Shown here: one piece after another, positions 35,010 to 41,580 of the stretch
How positions within the stretch are numbered: the stretch's first letter is position 1
How the letters are laid out: each line of letters opens with the position of its first letter
From: Nitrosopumilus sp.
GTDB lineage: Archaea; Thermoproteota; Nitrososphaeria; Nitrososphaerales; Nitrosopumilaceae
DNA: 64,000 nt
Direction of reading: 5' to 3'
Assembly: GCA_965205675.1 (NCBI GenBank)
Contig: OZ242186.1
Span: 608,001-672,000, forward strand
The notes under the pieces: model-generated
Databases searched by the model: none
Seen by the model: only the letters and a program-made list of their open reading frames with translations
What the model was told of the DNA's origin: nothing
Position numbers and translations under genes: made by a program

Positions 35010-36164
35010 TTGGATTGGGGATTAAAAAATAGAATTTCTAGTATAATCAAACCGCAAAATAACCGTGCATTGATGTTGGCTGTAGACCATGGTTATTTTC
35101 TTGGCCCTACTGAAAAGTTAGAGAATCCTAGAAAGGTAATTGCTCCTTTGTTAAAATATTGTGACTCTTTGATGGTTACCCGAGGAGTTCAAAGAACTTC
35201 TGTTCCTGCAACTACTGATACCCCTATGGTCTTGAGAGTTTCTGGCGGTTCTAGTATTATAGGTGATGATCTATCTCAAGAAGATATCACAGTATCTGTT
35301 GAAGATGCTATTAGACTAAATGCAAGTGCTCTTGCAATGTCTATCTTTGTTGGCTCAAAATATGAATATCAAACCATTGTTAATCTTGGAAAATTAGTTA
35401 ATGAGGCAGAAAAATATGGTTTGCCTGTTTTAGCAGTTACTGCAGTGGGAAAGGAACTTGGTAAGGATGCACGATACCTTTCATTGGCTTGTCGTATTGC
35501 AGCTGAACAAGGCGCACATATTGTCAAAACTTACTATTGTGAGAATTTTGAAAAAGTTGTTCAATCATGTCCTGTGCCAATTATTGTTGCAGGTGGAAAG
35601 AAAATTCCTGAACGTGATGCCTTACAATTAACATATAACGCAATCAAAGGCGGCGCTGTGGGTGTTGATATGGGTAGAAACATCTGGCAATCTGCACATC
35701 CAGTTCCTATGATCCAGGCTGTGCGCGCAATTGTACACCAAAACAAAAATGCTGATCAAGCTTTCAAAATATATCAACAACTCGTAGCACAAGAACCAAA
35801 ATCAAACGAACCTAATAATTACAAAAAAGGTAACAACCCAAACCAAAAGAAAGGTAACAACCCAAACCAAAAGAAAGGTAACAACCCAAACCAAAAGAAA
35901 GGTAACAACCCAAACCCAGAGAAAGACAATAACCCAAAACCAAACGAACTTAACAATCAGAAAAAAGATGATGTCTCAAACCAAAAGAAAGACAATAATC
36001 CAAAACCAAACGAACTTAACAATCAGAAAAAAGATGATGTCTCAAACCAAAAGAAAGACAATAACCCAAAACCAAACGAACTTAACAATCAGAAAAAAGA
36101 TGATGTCTCAAACCAAAAGAAAGACAATAACCCAAAACCAAACGAACTTGATGGTACAAAATAA
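35010..36164 (+). CDS. lsrF: LsrF-like class I aldolase/thiolase with low-complexity tail
   Basis: MDWGLKNR, AVDHGYF.GP, VKTY, AGG and DMGRNIWQ. Confidence 0.85.
   Translation: MDWGLKNRISSIIKPQNNRALMLAVDHGYFLGPTEKLENPRKVIAPLLKYCDSLMVTRGVQRTSVPATTDTPMVLRVSGGSSIIGDDLSQEDITVSVEDAIRLNASALAMSIFVGSKYEYQTIVNLGKLVNEAEKYGLPVLAVTAVGKELGKDARYLSLACRIAAEQGAHIVKTYYCENFEKVVQSCPVPIIVAGGKKIPERDALQLTYNAIKGGAVGVDMGRNIWQSAHPVPMIQAVRAIVHQNKNADQAFKIYQQLVAQEPKSNEPNNYKKGNNPNQKKGNNPNQKKGNNPNQKKGNNPNPEKDNNPKPNELNNQKKDDVSNQKKDNNPKPNELNNQKKDDVSNQKKDNNPKPNELNNQKKDDVSNQKKDNNPKPNELDGTK
35826..36149 (+). repeat. Compound in-frame tandem repeats: 24 bp x4, then 66 bp x3.5
   Basis: AAAGGTAACAACCCAAACCAAAAG from 35826; 66-bp unit (KDNNPKPNELNNQKKDDVSNQK) at 35922, 35988, 36054, partial at 36120. 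Confidence 0.95.
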
Positions 36165-36200
36165 TAAAGTTTCTAATACATATCAAAATTTAATCTATTT

Positions 36201-36602
36201 TCATTCAATTCTAGATAAATGAATATGTGCAATCTTCCATGTTGGTTGTTTTACCAAAACAAATGTTGCACGCCCTGTTATTGTCATGTGTTCTCCTGTG
36301 AATGCTTTGTTATCTACTAGCATTCCTTTTTGGATCAACTCCAACGCAACAATTGCCGTTTCTCCAAATACACTGATTTTTGGATTTTTTATCTCATAAG
36401 AATAGTCTGATATGCTAACAAATCTTAATTCTTCTAACTCTATTGTTGTTTGATAGTCTTTGAGATCATATGGTGGCAAGTCACTAAAACTGGAAAATTT
36501 TGGGTCATTAAGGTGAATCCCTTTGAGTGTCTCCAAATCCTTGGTAATTCCTGCTTGAAATAATATTTCAATCACTTTGATTATCTCTTCATTATCGTTC
36601 AA
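36201..36602 (-). CDS. NTF2/SnoaL-like protein
   Basis: C-terminal RATFVLVK..TWKIAHIHLS. Confidence 0.85.
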   Translation of the reverse strand: MNDNEEIIKVIEILFQAGITKDLETLKGIHLNDPKFSSFSDLPPYDLKDYQTTIELEELRFVSISDYSYEIKNPKISVFGETAIVALELIQKGMLVDNKAFTGEHMTITGRATFVLVKQPTWKIAHIHLSRIE

Positions 36603-36720
36603 AACAGTCTAATCTAAAATGAAGAAAATATCAGTTAAATCTTATGTATATTTGAGGCTAACACTTGATTATTTTTTGAGAATCTTTATTAATTGTCAAT
36701 TGATTATTTTTTTGATTTCA

Positions 36721-36780
36721 ATGAGTACAGAATTTACAGGAATTTTTGGCAAAGTAGTGTCAGTGACTGTTCTACTGTAA
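36721..36780 (+). CDS. Putative ilv/leu leader peptide MSTEFTGIFGKVVSVTVLL
   Basis: 19-codon uORF ending 31 nt before ilvB; last 8 codons VVSVTVLL; TATA-like TTTATTAA at 36685-36692. Confidence 0.6.
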   Translation: MSTEFTGIFGKVVSVTVLL

Positions 36781-36811
36781 AATGTGCCTGATATCTTACT
36801 AGATTAAAATT

Positions 36812-38524
36812 ATGGAGAGAAGTTTGATGAATGAAATGGAAAATATGACTGGTGCAAAGGCCTTGATGACCTCTATGGAAAAAGAAGGCGTCAAACAAGT
36901 ATTTGGTTTACCTGGAGGTGCAAATCTCCCAATGTATGATGAATTTGCCAGATGTGATATACGACACATTTTGGTAAGGCATGAACAATCAGCAGCTCAT
37001 ATGGCTGATGGTTTTGGTAGAGTTAGCAGAAAACCTGGTGTATGTTTTGCAACTTCTGGTCCTGGTGCTACTAACATTTTAACTGGAATTGCAACTGCAC
37101 AAGCTGATTCTGCACCTATGATTGCAGTAACTGGACAAGTATCAGTCGACATGATTGGTAAGGATGCATTTCAAGAAAGTGATATTATTGGAATGGCAAA
37201 CCCTGTTGTAAAATATGCTTTTCAACCTCGAAGTGCTGCTGAAATCCCCGAAGTTGTAAAAAAAGGATTTTTCATTGCAGAAACTGGAAGACCTGGACCT
37301 GTATTAATTGACATTCCAAAAGATGTTCAAATAAATGAAGCACCAATGAATTTTCCTGATGAATTTAAAATTCAAGGTTATCATCCTTGGACTGATCCTG
37401 ATATTGTTAATGTTGAAAGAGCAATCGATATGTTACTTCACGCAGAAAAACCAATCATACTAGCTGGCGGTGGTGCAATCATTTCATCAGCTTTTGCAGA
37501 GCTGCAATCAATTGCTGAAGCATTAATGCTTCCAGTAGTTACTACTTTCAAAGGCAAGGGTGGATTTCCAGAAAATCATCCTTTATCCCTAGGCCCAATT
37601 GGAATGCATGGCCATGCAGAAGCTAACAAAATGATGGCAGAAGCTGATTGTGTGTTAGCTATTGGTACTAGATTCTCTGATCGGTCAGTTGGTACCTTTG
37701 AGGCATTTGAGAAAAGATTGAAAATTATTCACATGGATGTAGATCCTGCAGAGATTGGTAAAAACCAAACAGCTCAAGTTGCCATAGTGGGAGATGTTCG
37801 TGCCTCCTTGCGTATTATGGTAAAATTACTTTTGCAAAAAGCGATTAAAAAAACTGAAGAAACTCCTTGGATAAAACATGTCAAGGAAACTAAGGCATAT
37901 TGGAAAGAAAACTTGAAACTTCATCCTGGTGAAATGGGTGCCGCTAAAATTTTACGCAAGCTTCGTGAATTACTCCCAAAGGAATCTATTGTTACAACTG
38001 AGGTAGGACAACACCAAATGTGGGCTTCTTTATTTTATGATGTAATTCAACCCGGAACTTTCTTTAGTTCTACTGGACTTGGTACTATGGGTTGGGGATT
38101 TCCTGCAGCCATTGGTGCCAAAGTTGCAAAACCTGATGCACCTGTAGTTGACATTGCAGGAGATGGTAGTTTTAGTATGACTGAGAATTCTCTTGCAACT
38201 GCAGTTCTTGAAGACATTCCTGTCATTGTATTTCTCTTAAACAACTCTTCACTAGGAATGGTAGCTCAATGGCAAAGAACCTTCTATGACCGACGAATGA
38301 TTGGTGTAGATCAACAAAGTTGTCCTGATTATGTTAAACTCGCAGAGTCTTATGGCGCACAAGGATTAAGAGCTCAGTCTATGGATGAACTTGACAATGC
38401 AATTAAAACTGCATTAAGCAGCAATGTTGCAACTGTAATTGACATTCCAATTGATCCTGAAGAAGATGTATTGCCATTTGTAGCTCCTGGAACTCCGTTG
38501 TCGGAGATGATCTTACCTTCTTAG
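36812..38524 (+). CDS. ilvB: Acetolactate synthase large subunit
   Basis: FGLPGG, RHEQ, TSGPG and GDGS..NN; start may be one of the next ATGs. Confidence 0.95.
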   Translation: MERSLMNEMENMTGAKALMTSMEKEGVKQVFGLPGGANLPMYDEFARCDIRHILVRHEQSAAHMADGFGRVSRKPGVCFATSGPGATNILTGIATAQADSAPMIAVTGQVSVDMIGKDAFQESDIIGMANPVVKYAFQPRSAAEIPEVVKKGFFIAETGRPGPVLIDIPKDVQINEAPMNFPDEFKIQGYHPWTDPDIVNVERAIDMLLHAEKPIILAGGGAIISSAFAELQSIAEALMLPVVTTFKGKGGFPENHPLSLGPIGMHGHAEANKMMAEADCVLAIGTRFSDRSVGTFEAFEKRLKIIHMDVDPAEIGKNQTAQVAIVGDVRASLRIMVKLLLQKAIKKTEETPWIKHVKETKAYWKENLKLHPGEMGAAKILRKLRELLPKESIVTTEVGQHQMWASLFYDVIQPGTFFSSTGLGTMGWGFPAAIGAKVAKPDAPVVDIAGDGSFSMTENSLATAVLEDIPVIVFLLNNSSLGMVAQWQRTFYDRRMIGVDQQSCPDYVKLAESYGAQGLRAQSMDELDNAIKTALSSNVATVIDIPIDPEEDVLPFVAPGTPLSEMILPS

Positions 38525-38533
38525 TGATTAAAC

Positions 38534-39016
38534 ATGTGGGCAATACTTTCTATCCTAGTTGAAAACAAACCTGGAATCTTATTCAAGGTGACTCATCTTT
38601 TCAGAGCAAGGAATTTCAATATTGATAGTATCTCTGTGGGGATAACTGAAAATTCTGAATATTCCAAGATGACTATTACTACATATGGTGATGAAAAACA
38701 AATTGATCAAATCGTAAAACAACTCGATAAAATGATTGACACAGTCAAAGTTGAGCGCTTAGATGAGCACAAAACAGTATATCGCGAACTTAGTCTTTTT
38801 AAGATAACACTCAGTAATGCTAATGATAGTATGGAAGTTAATAAACTAGCAAATGCGTATGGTGCCAAAGTCCATGACGTGAAAAAAGATTCTCTTATGG
38901 TAGAATTAACTGCCACACCTGATCAAATCAAAGCATTTGAAGAATTAGTAAAACCTTTTGGAATTCTTGATGTTGCTCGAACCGGTGTTGCTGCTTTGCA
39001 AAGAAGTGGTGCATAA
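38534..39016 (+). CDS. ilvH: Acetolactate synthase small subunit
   Basis: VENKPG, F..RNFNIDS and VARTG. Confidence 0.94.
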   Translation: MWAILSILVENKPGILFKVTHLFRARNFNIDSISVGITENSEYSKMTITTYGDEKQIDQIVKQLDKMIDTVKVERLDEHKTVYRELSLFKITLSNANDSMEVNKLANAYGAKVHDVKKDSLMVELTATPDQIKAFEELVKPFGILDVARTGVAALQRSGA

Positions 39017-40524
39017 TGACAAATGTTAGAATTTTTGATACCACACTAAGAGATGGCGAACAAACTCTTGGAGTATCTTTATCTCCTGATCAAAAATTAG
39101 CAATTGCAAAAAAACTTGATGAATTGGGAGTTGATGCAATAGAGGCAGGATTTCCTGTAATTTCTGAAGGTGAATCACAAGCTGTTAAAATGATTACAGC
39201 AGAAGGGTTATCTTGTGAAATTGCAGGATTGACTAGAACTATCAAAAAAGATATTGATGCTGCAGTTGATGCCGGATTAAATTACGTTCACACATTTATT
39301 GCAACTTCAGACATTCACTTGGAACACAAGCTCCACATGACTCGAGAACACGCTCTTGAAAAAGCAATTGAAGCAGTAGAATATGGCAAGTCTCGTGGAT
39401 TGCAAGTAGAGTTTTCAGCTGAAGATGCATCAAGAACTGATCGGGAATTTTTGAAAAAAGTTTTCGGTGATGTTGCAAAAGCAGGTGCTGATCGTGTCAA
39501 TATTCCTGACACTGTGGGTTATTCTACCCCTGAATACATGGCTGAAATTACTAAAGACACTATTGAGGCTACAAAACTTCCAGTAAGTGTTCATTGTCAT
39601 AATGATTTTGGATTAGCAGTTGCAAATGCCTTATCTGGAATTCATGCAGGTGCTGCATGTGCCCATGTTACAATTAATGGTATTGGGGAAAGAGCAGGCA
39701 ATGCTTCATTAGAAGAATTTTCAATGGCACTCAAATGTTTACCCTATGATCAAAATTATGAAACCAACATCAAATCTGAATTAATTTATGATACATCTAG
39801 ATTCATTTCAAAAACTGTGGGGATTATTGTACAACCAAACAAAGCAATAGTTGGTGCTAATGCTTTTGGTCATGAATCTGGAATTCATACACATGGTGTA
39901 TTGAACAATCCTCTTACTTACGAACCTATTAGTCCTGAATTAGTTGGAAGAAAACGTTGGCTTAAGGTTGGAAAACATGCAGGTGTTCATGGGATGAATG
40001 CCATGTTGGAAGAGTATGGTGTAAAACCCACTGAAGAACAAGCAAAACAAATCTTAGAACAAGTTAAGATGCTCGGTGACCAGGGAAGACAAATTACTGA
40101 TGTCGAGTTGTTATCTATTGCTAGTGAAGTTCTAGGTGAAAAAGATCTTAAAAGAATTGTACAATTGACTGGTTTTTCTGTCTCTACTGGAATTGGAACT
40201 ATGCCTTATGCCTTTGTAAAACTAAATGTCAATGGCCAGGATCATATTGGAACTGATTATGGTGTTGGGCCTGTAGATGCTGCATTAAATGCGATTCAAA
40301 AAATTACTGGTAAGATTTCTGAAATTAAAATCAAAGACTATGGATTGGCATCTATTTCTGGCGGTTCTGGAGCATTATGTGAAGTTACAGTAAAAGTTGA
40401 AGATCCTTTGGGAAATAAGGTCTCTGCAAAATCTGTTGGTGAAGATATTGTAACTACTTCTGTAAAGGCAGTTATTGACGCAATTAATAGAATCATGCTC
40501 AAAAAAATGCTTGATGAAAACTAG
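39016..40524 (+). CDS. leuA: 2-isopropylmalate synthase (LeuA/CimA family)
   Basis: DTTLRDGEQ, HCHNDFG, GERAGN and regulatory domain; citramalate activity not excluded. Confidence 0.88.
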   Translation: MTNVRIFDTTLRDGEQTLGVSLSPDQKLAIAKKLDELGVDAIEAGFPVISEGESQAVKMITAEGLSCEIAGLTRTIKKDIDAAVDAGLNYVHTFIATSDIHLEHKLHMTREHALEKAIEAVEYGKSRGLQVEFSAEDASRTDREFLKKVFGDVAKAGADRVNIPDTVGYSTPEYMAEITKDTIEATKLPVSVHCHNDFGLAVANALSGIHAGAACAHVTINGIGERAGNASLEEFSMALKCLPYDQNYETNIKSELIYDTSRFISKTVGIIVQPNKAIVGANAFGHESGIHTHGVLNNPLTYEPISPELVGRKRWLKVGKHAGVHGMNAMLEEYGVKPTEEQAKQILEQVKMLGDQGRQITDVELLSIASEVLGEKDLKRIVQLTGFSVSTGIGTMPYAFVKLNVNGQDHIGTDYGVGPVDAALNAIQKITGKISEIKIKDYGLASISGGSGALCEVTVKVEDPLGNKVSAKSVGEDIVTTSVKAVIDAINRIMLKKMLDEN

Positions 40525-40566
40525 GTTATCTAAATCCTAAAATCTCCCTTTATCTTATGTGTGATT

Positions 40567-41580
40567 ATGTATAAAATCTCATTAATTACAGGTGATGGCA
40601 TAGGTCCTGAGTTATCTGAATCTGCAATTTCTGTGTTAAATACAATTCACGATAGATTCGATTTGAAATTTGATATTACAAAATTATCTGCAGGTGACAA
40701 GGCATTATCTGAAACTGGAAAAGCACTTCCTGATGAAACAGTTGATGTCATAAAACAATCTGATGTTTGCATGAAAGCTCCTGTGGGTGAAAGTGCAGCT
40801 GATGTGATTGTAGTGTTAAGACGGATGCTTGATTTGTATGCTAATATCAGGCCTGCAAAATCATATCCACATATGCCTGCCTTACGTGATGATATTGATA
40901 TGGTAATAGTTCGAGAAAATACTGAGGATCTCTACACTGGAAAAGAATTCAGTTTGGGTAATTCTGCTGTTGCATTAAGAATAATTTCTGAAGATGCATC
41001 AAAACGAATTGCAAAATATGCATTTGAAACTGCCAAACAACGTGATTCTATGAAAAAAGTTACTTGTGTTCACAAGTCCAATGTAATGCGCATTACTGAT
41101 GGGCTCTTTGCAAAAGCTTGTACCAAAGTCTCTAAAAACTATCCTGACATTATATTTGAGCAAATGTATGTTGATGCATGTGCTATGAATTTGATTCGAC
41201 AACCAGAACAATTTGATGTTGTAGTTACAACTAATCTATTTGGAGATATTTTATCTGATGAATCTTCTCAGGTTGTTGGTGGATTGGGCATGGCCCCTGC
41301 TGCTAATATTGGAGACAAGTTTGCACTCTTTGAACCTGTTCATGGTGCAGCATTTGATATTGCAGGACAAAATATTGCAAACCCCTCATCATTTTTACTA
41401 TCTATCAAGATGATGCTTGATTGGCTAGGTAACAAACACAATGATTCAAAATGCATTGAAGTGGGACAAAAATTGGAATCAACAATATTTGATTTAGTCA
41501 AATCTGGTGTCAAGACTAAAGATATTGGCGGTGATAAGAGTACATCAGAATTTACAAAAGAAATTACAGATAATCTCTAA
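40567..41580 (+). CDS. leuB: 3-isopropylmalate dehydrogenase family
   Basis: GDGIGPE, RENTED.Y, NLFGDILSD and EPVHG; follows leuA. Confidence 0.85.
   Translation: MYKISLITGDGIGPELSESAISVLNTIHDRFDLKFDITKLSAGDKALSETGKALPDETVDVIKQSDVCMKAPVGESAADVIVVLRRMLDLYANIRPAKSYPHMPALRDDIDMVIVRENTEDLYTGKEFSLGNSAVALRIISEDASKRIAKYAFETAKQRDSMKKVTCVHKSNVMRITDGLFAKACTKVSKNYPDIIFEQMYVDACAMNLIRQPEQFDVVVTTNLFGDILSDESSQVVGGLGMAPAANIGDKFALFEPVHGAAFDIAGQNIANPSSFLLSIKMMLDWLGNKHNDSKCIEVGQKLESTIFDLVKSGVKTKDIGGDKSTSEFTKEITDNL

Follow-up and report, generated by a model that had tools for sequence, protein, structure and literature searches.

Bacteria are the textbook setting for ribosome-mediated attenuation, of which, to our knowledge, no archaeal example has been characterized. 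The locus described here raises the question of whether an archaeon, too, reads the charging of its branched-chain tRNAs through a short upstream open reading frame (uORF) ahead of a biosynthetic operon. It lies in a stretch of 64,000 nucleotides (nt) from Nitrosopumilus sp. (GenBank assembly GCA_965205675.1, contig OZ242186.1, positions 608,001 to 672,000, forward strand), which we refer to as the window and within which we count positions from its first letter. A first-pass annotation had singled out a Val/Leu-rich uORF between a TATA-like box and ilvB as a candidate attenuation leader. We found that an ilvB leader open reading frame (ORF) with a Leu/Val/Ile tail, together with covarying helices, is real and conserved, and we hold with moderate confidence that the uORF is a ribosome-stalling sensor of branched-chain tRNA charging. 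We infer from sequence patterns that the uORF is translated, that ribosomes would stall within it, and in which direction the effect would run.

The frame opens with the ATG at 36721 and closes with the TAA at 36778 to 36780, and the 19 codons between them encode the peptide MSTEFTGIFGKVVSVTVLL. Its position and composition proved to be as first annotated, with four Val, two Leu (CTA and CTG), one Ile, and three Thr residues, and with Val or Leu at six of the last eight codons. The features at the center of the argument are these.

36721 to 36780, plus strand: uORF, the leader peptide candidate MSTEFTGIFGKVVSVTVLL (19 codons plus TAA), known from its translation and from homologous short ORFs before ilvB.
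36751 to 36777, plus strand: candidate sensor tail of nine codons just before the stop, AAA GTA GTG TCA GTG ACT GTT CTA CTG (K V V S V T V L L).
36836 to 38524, plus strand: ilvB, the acetolactate synthase large subunit, from its conserved start (TIGR00118, 711.9 bits).

The longest ORF of ilvB runs from 36812 to 38524 and has further in-frame ATGs at 36827 and 36845. The conserved start is the ATG at 36836, and ATGGAAAnTATG is kept in all family loci.

The uORF owes its significance to its conservation in relatives and not to the window sequence alone. We scored relatives by a rule set in advance, which considered small ORFs of 8 to 60 codons (from the first ATG, or else from GTG or TTG) in the 250 nt upstream of the aligned ilvB N terminus and recorded the best count of Leu, Val, and Ile in the last eight residues. 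The results were as follows.

Family, sense strand: 85 loci, of which 67 scored at least 5 and 53 at least 6.
Family, antisense strand: 85 loci, of which 3 scored at least 5 and 0 at least 6.
Other families of the order: 19 loci, of which 14 scored at least 5 and 9 at least 6.
Other orders of the class: 16 loci (one poorly anchored), of which 10 scored at least 5 and 9 at least 6.
Rest of the phylum: 30 loci, of which 5 scored at least 5 and 0 at least 6.

The counts from the rest of the phylum are at the background rate. As background, we took 1900 upstream windows from a rough gene call on the window's genome (one contig of 2,011,361 bases). A tail score of at least 5 occurred in 272 of them (14.3%), and a small ORF with at least six Leu, Val, or Ile among its last eight residues in 65 (3.4%). 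Within the family, 20 of 25 genera were positive, the exceptions being g18, g21, g24, g28, and g34 (locus L078 of g34 is borderline), and among positives the uORF stop codon lies 22 to 83 nt from the aligned ilvB N terminus. The nucleotide sequence is almost wholly different between lineages, and the Leu/Val/Ile tail is nonetheless kept, as is seen when ...ALIVLLIVV* of the GC-rich loci L106 and L107 is set against ...VLLVILI* of the AT-rich L027. The proposal that homologous uORFs should be sought upstream of ilvB in relatives thus held in the family, in the order, and in other orders of the class. Three further loci (L024, L102, and L103, of family f9) have a longer uORF of about 30 to 48 codons, whose homologous frame starts M-L-Y and whose end is weakly or not at all Leu/Val/Ile rich; this may be a diverged form of the leader.

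The enrichment follows distance from the stop codon. Across 89 leaders, Leu, Val, and Ile made up 48 to 92% of residues at positions −1 to −9 and 19 to 30% at positions −10 to −13. Among 87 distinct peptides, these three amino acids accounted for 73.6% of the last nine residues and Phe, Met, Ala, Trp, Gly, and Cys together for 5.7%; elsewhere in the leader peptide the Leu/Val/Ile share was 23.5%, compared with 24% in the proteome. An Asp or Glu residue stands at position −4 in 33 of the 89 leaders, and the peptides are 9 to 46 residues long (median, 19). The enrichment is present in both AT-rich and GC-rich genomes with unrelated nucleotide sequences. Leu codons in the tails are also skewed, CTG accounting for 38% (versus 7% genome-wide, in the window's genome) and CTA for 24% (versus 16%), and part of this skew may come from a CTGTAA word used in a helix. 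Judged by its sequence, the tail profile resembles that of branched-chain leader peptides and is unlike that of a generally hydrophobic or membrane peptide.

Two candidate promoters, designated P1 and P2, flank the uORF.

36680 to 36693, plus strand: P1, the uORF promoter, with the TATA-like TTTATTAA (36684 to 36691) and flanking conserved bases (AATCTTTATTAAT in relatives).
36804 to 36812, plus strand: TTAAAATTA box, the putative TATA of a second promoter, P2, for ilvB.

The TATA-like box that had been noted upstream of the uORF is therefore present, and the P1 block around it is conserved in relatives. Its TATA begins 37 nt upstream of the uORF ATG, and since TATA-like hexamers in the window's genome peak 28 to 31 nt ahead of gene starts, the 5′ untranslated region (UTR) of the uORF would be about 7 nt, that is, near-leaderless.

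The second box, as TTAAAATTA(TGG), stands at a fixed 41 nt before the aligned N terminus and 32 nt before the conserved ATG (36836) in 12 genera, including the window's, and the exact match to TTAAAATTA is unique to this site among the intergenic sites of the window's genome. It is retained without the uORF at L006 and L013, in slightly altered form at L016 and L017, and in genera g24 and g34, and in the GC-rich loci L039 and L041 it forms an AT island 26 to 27 nt upstream of their start. Because the box is kept without the uORF, forms an AT island in GC-rich genomes, and has TATA-like spacing, we read it as P2, probably the TATA box of ilvB itself, with 36836 as a near-leaderless start. Part of ilvB transcription in the window's lineage may start downstream of the uORF.

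An ATG at 36812 overlaps this box, lies in frame with ilvB in the window, and adds 8 codons to the longest ORF. It is not a conserved part of ilvB, because the frame from an ATG of this type is closed by a stop codon at or next to the ilvB ATG in g19, g20, g32, and L016/L017. The box ATG is kept in 45 of 50 loci with both a leader (tail score of at least 5) and a box match within 75 nt and in 8 of 15 box loci without a scored leader, L003, L020, L066, and L070 carrying a weaker uORF; these retention counts are suggestive only, and the box ATG may serve read-through transcripts. In g19, g20, and g32 (L044 to L048 and L071 to L073), the TTAAAATTATGG box starts a seven-codon mini-ORF (e.g., MEKNLVN*) that ends at or next to the ilvB ATG. 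We also considered the TTAAAATTATGG box as a regulon-wide motif and rejected this idea, since the genome contains only one further exact copy, from which it is about 2.2 kb to the next called gene start on that strand.

A second, compact architecture was found at 18 loci of eight genera (g22, g25, g26, g27, g33, g35, g39, and g40) and, besides these, in the other families and orders. Here the order is TATA, uORF, hairpin, a stretch that is often T rich, a GGTGA- or GGAGG-type Shine-Dalgarno sequence, and the ilvB ATG, and the uORF stop codon is 38 to 72 nt ahead of ilvB. This leaves no space for a second promoter, so that in compact lineages the uORF and ilvB must share one transcript.

The RNA around the window's uORF folds, at minimum energy, into a long imperfect rod with the following parts.

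36714 to 36729, plus strand: 5′ arm of an outer closing helix, containing the uORF AUG and pairing with 36783 to 36795.
36733 to 36743, plus strand: 5′ arm TTTACAGGAAT of a middle helix, pairing with 36769 to 36772 and 36775 to 36781 (last Leu codon plus stop).
36746 to 36763, plus strand: inner hairpin of TTGGCA (36746 to 36751) and TGTCAG (36758 to 36763).
36769 to 36795, plus strand: 3′ arms of the middle and outer helices, covering the last codons, the stop codon, and 15 nt beyond.

The middle helix (TTTACAG:CTGTAAA) was shared, among the loci read, by L008 only. Overlapping alternative pairings had been proposed at first pass, namely, TTTACAG at 36733 to 36739 with CTGTAAA at 36775 to 36781, as opposed to AGTAG at 36753 to 36757 with CTACT at 36772 to 36776 and CAGG at 36737 to 36740 with CCTG at 36787 to 36790. 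Their coordinates are correct, but their conservation as alternatives did not hold up: the AGTAG:CTACT and CAGG:CCTG pairings lie outside the minimum-energy fold and are not complementary in the nearest relative, L008.

Relatives of the window's type pair the segment after the stop codon with the start codon region. The closing helix that results, imperfect in the window, has compensatory changes in relatives, where it occurs as GAGCACA:TGTGCTC, GGATACA:TGTGTCC, GACCACA:TGTGGTC, GGGCGC:GCGCCC, GACTGA:TCAGTC, and GTGTGT:ACACAC. Mean pairing energy between 5′ and 3′ arms was −11.5 kcal/mol for cognate arms and −5.9 kcal/mol for noncognate ones. In the equivalent of the inner hairpin (GGCAA/TTGCC), four of five pairs change on both sides. 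When closing helix and inner hairpin were taken together in an alignment of 21 leaders (A3), the structure was 85% paired, compared with 29 to 54% when slid, and 10 of 13 pairs changed on both sides; only 1 of 500 shuffles matched this, a count to be read, like the one for alignment A2 below, with the caveat that kinship alone can make sequences beat shuffles without structure.

Single-sequence folds of other leaders share a recurring plan, in which one helix has its 3′ arm inside the Leu/Val codons and another sits on the stop codon or immediately beyond it, in many cases taking in the final CTG and the stop codon itself (e.g., GCTGTAA...ACAGC). In an ungapped, stop-anchored alignment of 26 leaders (A2), the first of these helices was 80.8% paired, compared with 13 to 57% with the partner slid, and had a covariation score of 0.258, compared with 0.204 in shuffles, of which 0 of 500 reached it; one of its pairs divides into AU in 14 leaders and GC in 9. 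The stop-adjacent helix reached −4 kcal/mol or lower in 79 of 89 leaders and −6 kcal/mol or lower in 52 of 89, started within −8 to +8 nt of the stop codon in 76 of 89, and had a mean pair probability of 0.76 in the free leader. RNAalifold found no consensus structure in a 68-sequence family alignment (A1), because helix registers differ between lineages. At the compact-type loci L052, L053, L057, L058, L061, L062, L091, and L092, a perfect Shine-Dalgarno-like word, GGAGG, falls within uORF codons 3 to 5 (AAGTTAGGAGGATCG), where it contributes to the 5′ arm that pairs with the Leu/Val codons.

Transcription-translation coupling exists in archaea, and archaeal transcription terminates at oligo-T and through the FttA/aCPSF1 factor. 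Against this background, we propose that the uORF represents, in the window, an old leader-peptide element of the ilvB operon that occurs in much of the class. With its own TATA box and a 5′ UTR of some 7 nt, the uORF would let a ribosome engage the 5′ end of the RNA during its synthesis. Under a shortage of charged branched-chain tRNAs, this ribosome would stall in the last nine codons and, because these abut the stop codon, would cover the 5′ side of a helix that in its absence takes shape on the stop or immediately beyond it, a local hairpin in most lineages and, in the window's type, the closing helix between the start codon region and the post-stop segment. With this helix held open, downstream expression would rise; after run-through and departure of the ribosome the helix would form, and expression would fall. 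The output of the helix would be either the end of transcription at a T-rich stretch, in some lineages, or hindered initiation of ilvB translation. In the window's lineage, the probable P2 after the uORF and the missing T-tract mean that the element would tune only read-through transcripts and may be weakened.

Folding tests bear on how the helix could be switched. We modeled the stalled ribosome as a footprint reaching from −15 to +14 relative to the A-site codon. Placed at codon −9 or −7, where it leaves the stop-adjacent helix untouched, it changed the probability of that helix by a mean of +0.008 and +0.009, respectively (66 and 62 leaders), and a classical three-helix attenuator with an antiterminator is not supported. 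Unmasking of the Shine-Dalgarno sequence or start codon by a stalled ribosome, as in erm, is likewise not supported, as accessibility did not change. Because antiterminator and unmasking both failed in these tests, direct occlusion is left as the model, in agreement with the position of the sensor codons against the stop. Steric hindrance of ilvB initiation would be an alternative output, invisible to a pairing-based test, since in Shine-Dalgarno lineages the helix ends 4 to 16 nt before the Shine-Dalgarno sequence. What stands of the attenuation originally suggested is thus the conserved uORF and tail, the leaderless-type TATA spacing, and the covarying helices; the antiterminator-type switch does not stand on the folding results.

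A number of observations weigh against the sensor reading. Taken alone, the window's ORF and fold are not statistically exceptional: the leader RNA at 36714 to 36800 folds at −19 kcal/mol (z = −1.22), and 20 of 200 shuffles fold equally well; a second shuffle test gave z values of +0.37 and −0.11; and single-leader z scores were modest generally (medians over 77 leaders: ORF window, −0.93; stop window, −1.25). Between the window's uORF and ilvB we found no hairpin followed by a T-tract, as had been noted at first pass. T content after the helix is not raised overall (median of 3 T in the next 8 to 10 nt), a run of at least four T follows it in only 13 of 89 leaders, and T-tracts are confined to subsets, T5 to T6 following the helix in L079 to L081, L061, L066, and L116. 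Gene ends in the window's genome show no general hairpin signal, T5 runs there being as common as A5 runs, and hairpin-driven termination is not an evident habit of this organism. In the stall model, the helix pair probability was 0.76 free and 0.77 with stalls at codons −9 and −7, and the ilvB start region was unpaired with a probability of 0.498 in the free leader and 0.506 in the tail-stalled one (mean change, +0.007; 89 leaders). A terminating ribosome would, moreover, occlude the same helix as a stalled one, so that a kinetic difference between the two is required. Given the candidate P2, ilvB likely need not depend on the leader here. The relatives are not independent, so that the counts given above overstate the number of separate events, and the uORF has been lost in the same-genus relatives L006, L013, L016, and L017 and in several genera. 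At L013, the same divergent neighbor gene stands 72 nt nearer ilvB, the spacing to be expected from clean loss of a uORF module. Finally, inspection upstream of ilvC, ilvD, two leuCD-type (aconitase-type) pairs, trpE, and hisG revealed no comparable leader. The first-pass annotation had taken loss of the uORF or of its composition in relatives, or a transcription start downstream of it, as grounds for giving up its reading; the uORF and its composition are conserved, and a downstream start may apply in part, in view of the candidate P2.

The alternative that survives best, though we think it unlikely, is that the uORF is translated and matters for ilvB expression without sensing amino acids, its hydrophobic tail being a by-product of the RNA helices. 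The covarying helix does place its 3′ arm within the tail codons, and the conserved words GTCGAC, CTAG, and CTGTAA suggest constraint at the nucleotide level. The seven-codon mini-ORF that begins in the TTAAAATTATGG box of g19, g20, and g32 has a layout typical of coupling, and folding supported neither switch model. Such a by-product would nevertheless have to be Leu/Val/Ile rich in different sequences and helix registers, in the GC-rich L106 to L108 as in the AT-rich L027; pairing constraints by themselves would not keep out Phe, Ala, Gly, and Met, which fall within the class making up 5.7% of tail residues; and the operon would only by coincidence make the very amino acids that the tail codons specify.

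We give a smaller chance to a noncoding RNA, or a DNA site for a regulator such as an Lrp-type protein, as the functional unit with the open frame incidental to it. Covariation of the helices would fit an RNA, leader RNAs that have been terminated and whose ends pair could persist as stable small RNAs, and AT-rich palindromic sequence surrounds the TTAAAATTA box in relatives. A frame of about 19 codons at leaderless TATA spacing would not, however, last in 67 of 85 loci (3 of 85 on the antisense strand) if it were incidental, and the residue pattern follows the reading frame and the distance from the stop codon. An Rfam scan of the window from 36000 to 37500 (E values up to 10) returned zero leader-family matches, and in a scan of the loci of 20 relatives the sole match was Trp_leader, at a chance-level 22.4 bits against a gathering threshold of 41.

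Slightly less probable again is that the small hydrophobic peptide acts in its own right, as a membrane microprotein or a modulator of acetolactate synthase, and simply travels with ilvB. Its hydrophobic run of about nine residues is too short for a membrane span in peptides of 9 to 46 residues (median, 19), an acidic residue interrupts it at −4 in 33 of 89 leaders, the N-terminal part differs between lineages, and the enrichment is specific to Leu, Val, and Ile and not generally hydrophobic. These points outweigh, in our view, the conserved start codon and open frame and the hydrophobic C terminus that such a peptide would explain. The uORF has its own promoter in the window's lineage, where it may be a separate transcription unit before P2, but in compact lineages it lies inside the 5′ leader of ilvB.

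A chance ORF in an AT-rich divergent promoter region is very improbable, for although an equal tail score occurs in 3.4% of the genome's upstream windows, other small ORFs with equally rich tails stand before unrelated genes, and the window's fold is unremarkable, position, frame, and composition are kept across genera, families, and orders while the nucleotides diverge.

The sensor reading invites comparison with known systems. Of the features of a classical attenuator, the uORF has a short ORF before an amino acid operon and clustered codons for the operon's products; it has no terminator in the window, and no antiterminator was found in the leaders generally. The leuL leader of Escherichia coli has a run of CUA codons, which the preference of the archaeal tails for rare Leu codons recalls. 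In bacteria, ilvB is commonly preceded by Leu/Val/Ile-rich uORFs read as attenuators, among them the Corynebacterium ilvB-II motif (genetically tested), ilvB-OMG, and the Leptospira ilvB motifs (PMC10272879). The archaeal leaders share with these, and with leaders of the E. coli ilvL/ivbL/leuL type, a Leu/Val/Ile-rich uORF before ilvB and conserved helices. They differ in their host; in placing the sensor codons at the end of the peptide and not in the first arm of a 1:2/2:3/3:4 switch; and in showing no antiterminator alternative, no regular T-tract after the hairpin, and no match to an Rfam leader.

Leader peptides near the 5′ end of a transcript also have bacterial counterparts: a Corynebacterium glutamicum ilvBNC leader is reported to lack a ribosome-binding site (Morbach et al. 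2000, cited in PMC13158618), 14 leaderless leader peptides were predicted in Deinococcus deserti (PMC4007540), and polycysteine leaderless short ORFs are reported from mycobacteria (10.1101/834739). The likeness would lie in a sensing uORF within a few nt of the predicted 5′ end, before the regulated operon. The bacterial starts were mapped, whereas the archaeal one is placed by TATA spacing, and its promoter is of the archaeal BRE/TATA kind. A further resemblance, as proposed here, is to translational attenuation of ermC and cat, where a ribosome stalled in the leader opens a nearby hairpin. In ermC and cat, that hairpin sequesters the downstream ribosome-binding site, whereas accessibility of the archaeal ilvB start was unchanged in our stall model, and the stall signal is a drug there and would be an uncharged tRNA here.

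For archaea, the uORF4u paper says, as a general statement, that uORFs are at work in this domain too (PMC10219788), and a survey of 134 Methanocaldococcus 5′ UTRs gives no sign of uORF use (PMC2699501). In the literature searched, with most subscription journals outside its coverage, we found neither a leader peptide nor a uORF described for these taxa, nor any case of archaeal amino acid attenuation, in line with the first-pass statement that no characterized equivalent for an archaeal ilv operon was known; nor did that literature yield a transcription start map for ammonia-oxidizing archaea.

A conserved tiny uORF of another type precedes ilvB elsewhere in the phylum. At L132, L138, L143, L144, and L149 (with variants at L134 and L137), it has 8 to 10 or more codons and ends in ..TLQV(x)*, as in MRDGTLQV*, MSGGTLQVR*, MIGGYTLQV*, and MIGDFSLQVD*. 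Its nucleotide motif is GATGA..GG..CCCTCCAAGT, with GAGGG/CCCTC hairpin potential and no Rfam match. This TLQV-type uORF may be a second kind of ilvB leader.

Elsewhere in the window's genome, no comparable uORF stands upstream of the second HMGL-type synthase gene, and a scan for His-, Trp-, Thr-, and Phe-rich and other small ORFs yielded nothing beyond the C termini of neighboring genes and ORFs that precede unrelated genes. The small ORF MLLILLILHD recurs in identical form 140 nt before about 20 paralogous genes encoding roughly 110 residues each (e.g., 228377 to 228707 and 297003 to 297354 of that genome), a repeated gene family with a conserved upstream region.

The genes following ilvB in the window are these.

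38534 to 39016, plus strand: ilvH/ilvN, the acetolactate synthase small subunit (TIGR00119, 171 bits).
39016 to 40524, plus strand: leuA, of the 2-isopropylmalate synthase type (NF002085, 624.6 bits).
40561 to 41580, plus strand: leuB-type isopropylmalate/isohomocitrate dehydrogenase (TIGR02088, 407.2 bits, narrowly missing the cutoff of 409.8).

The ilvBH-leuA-leuB operon assigned at first pass is accordingly backed by profile matches for ilvB, the small subunit, and leuA. The leuB identity of the last gene is not certain, and this dehydrogenase also matches homoisocitrate and isocitrate dehydrogenase models. On the other side of the uORF, a divergent ORF of 133 residues (36201 to 36602, minus strand) has no NCBIfam match, and relatives L013 and L016 have a 137-residue homologue in the neighboring position. 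Inside this ORF, at 36453 to 36490 (plus strand), lies a subthreshold Rfam match to Ocean-VII RNA (17.5 bits against a gathering threshold of 53.5; E = 0.038), which is probably due to chance.

Our most far-reaching claim, that this is the first archaeal amino-acid-sensing leader peptide, ancient within the class and simpler in design than the bacterial kind, in which a near-leaderless, one-shot uORF has its sensor codons set against the stop codon and a stalled ribosome, in place of an antiterminator, prevents a stop-adjacent helix from forming, is made tentatively, as we put its chances just short of even. If the sensor reading is true, archaea too would read tRNA charging through a ribosome translating nascent or 5′-proximal mRNA, and if the output is premature termination, the element would be a natural case of archaeal gene control through transcription-translation coupling. 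Together with the TLQV-type uORF elsewhere, it would make uORF control of ilvB widespread in the phylum. At about 80 to 110 nt, the element is short and defined and could be used to test coupling, termination, and reinitiation in archaea. For the organisms themselves, it would explain how abundant autotrophic ammonia oxidizers with few transcription factors tune a costly pathway.

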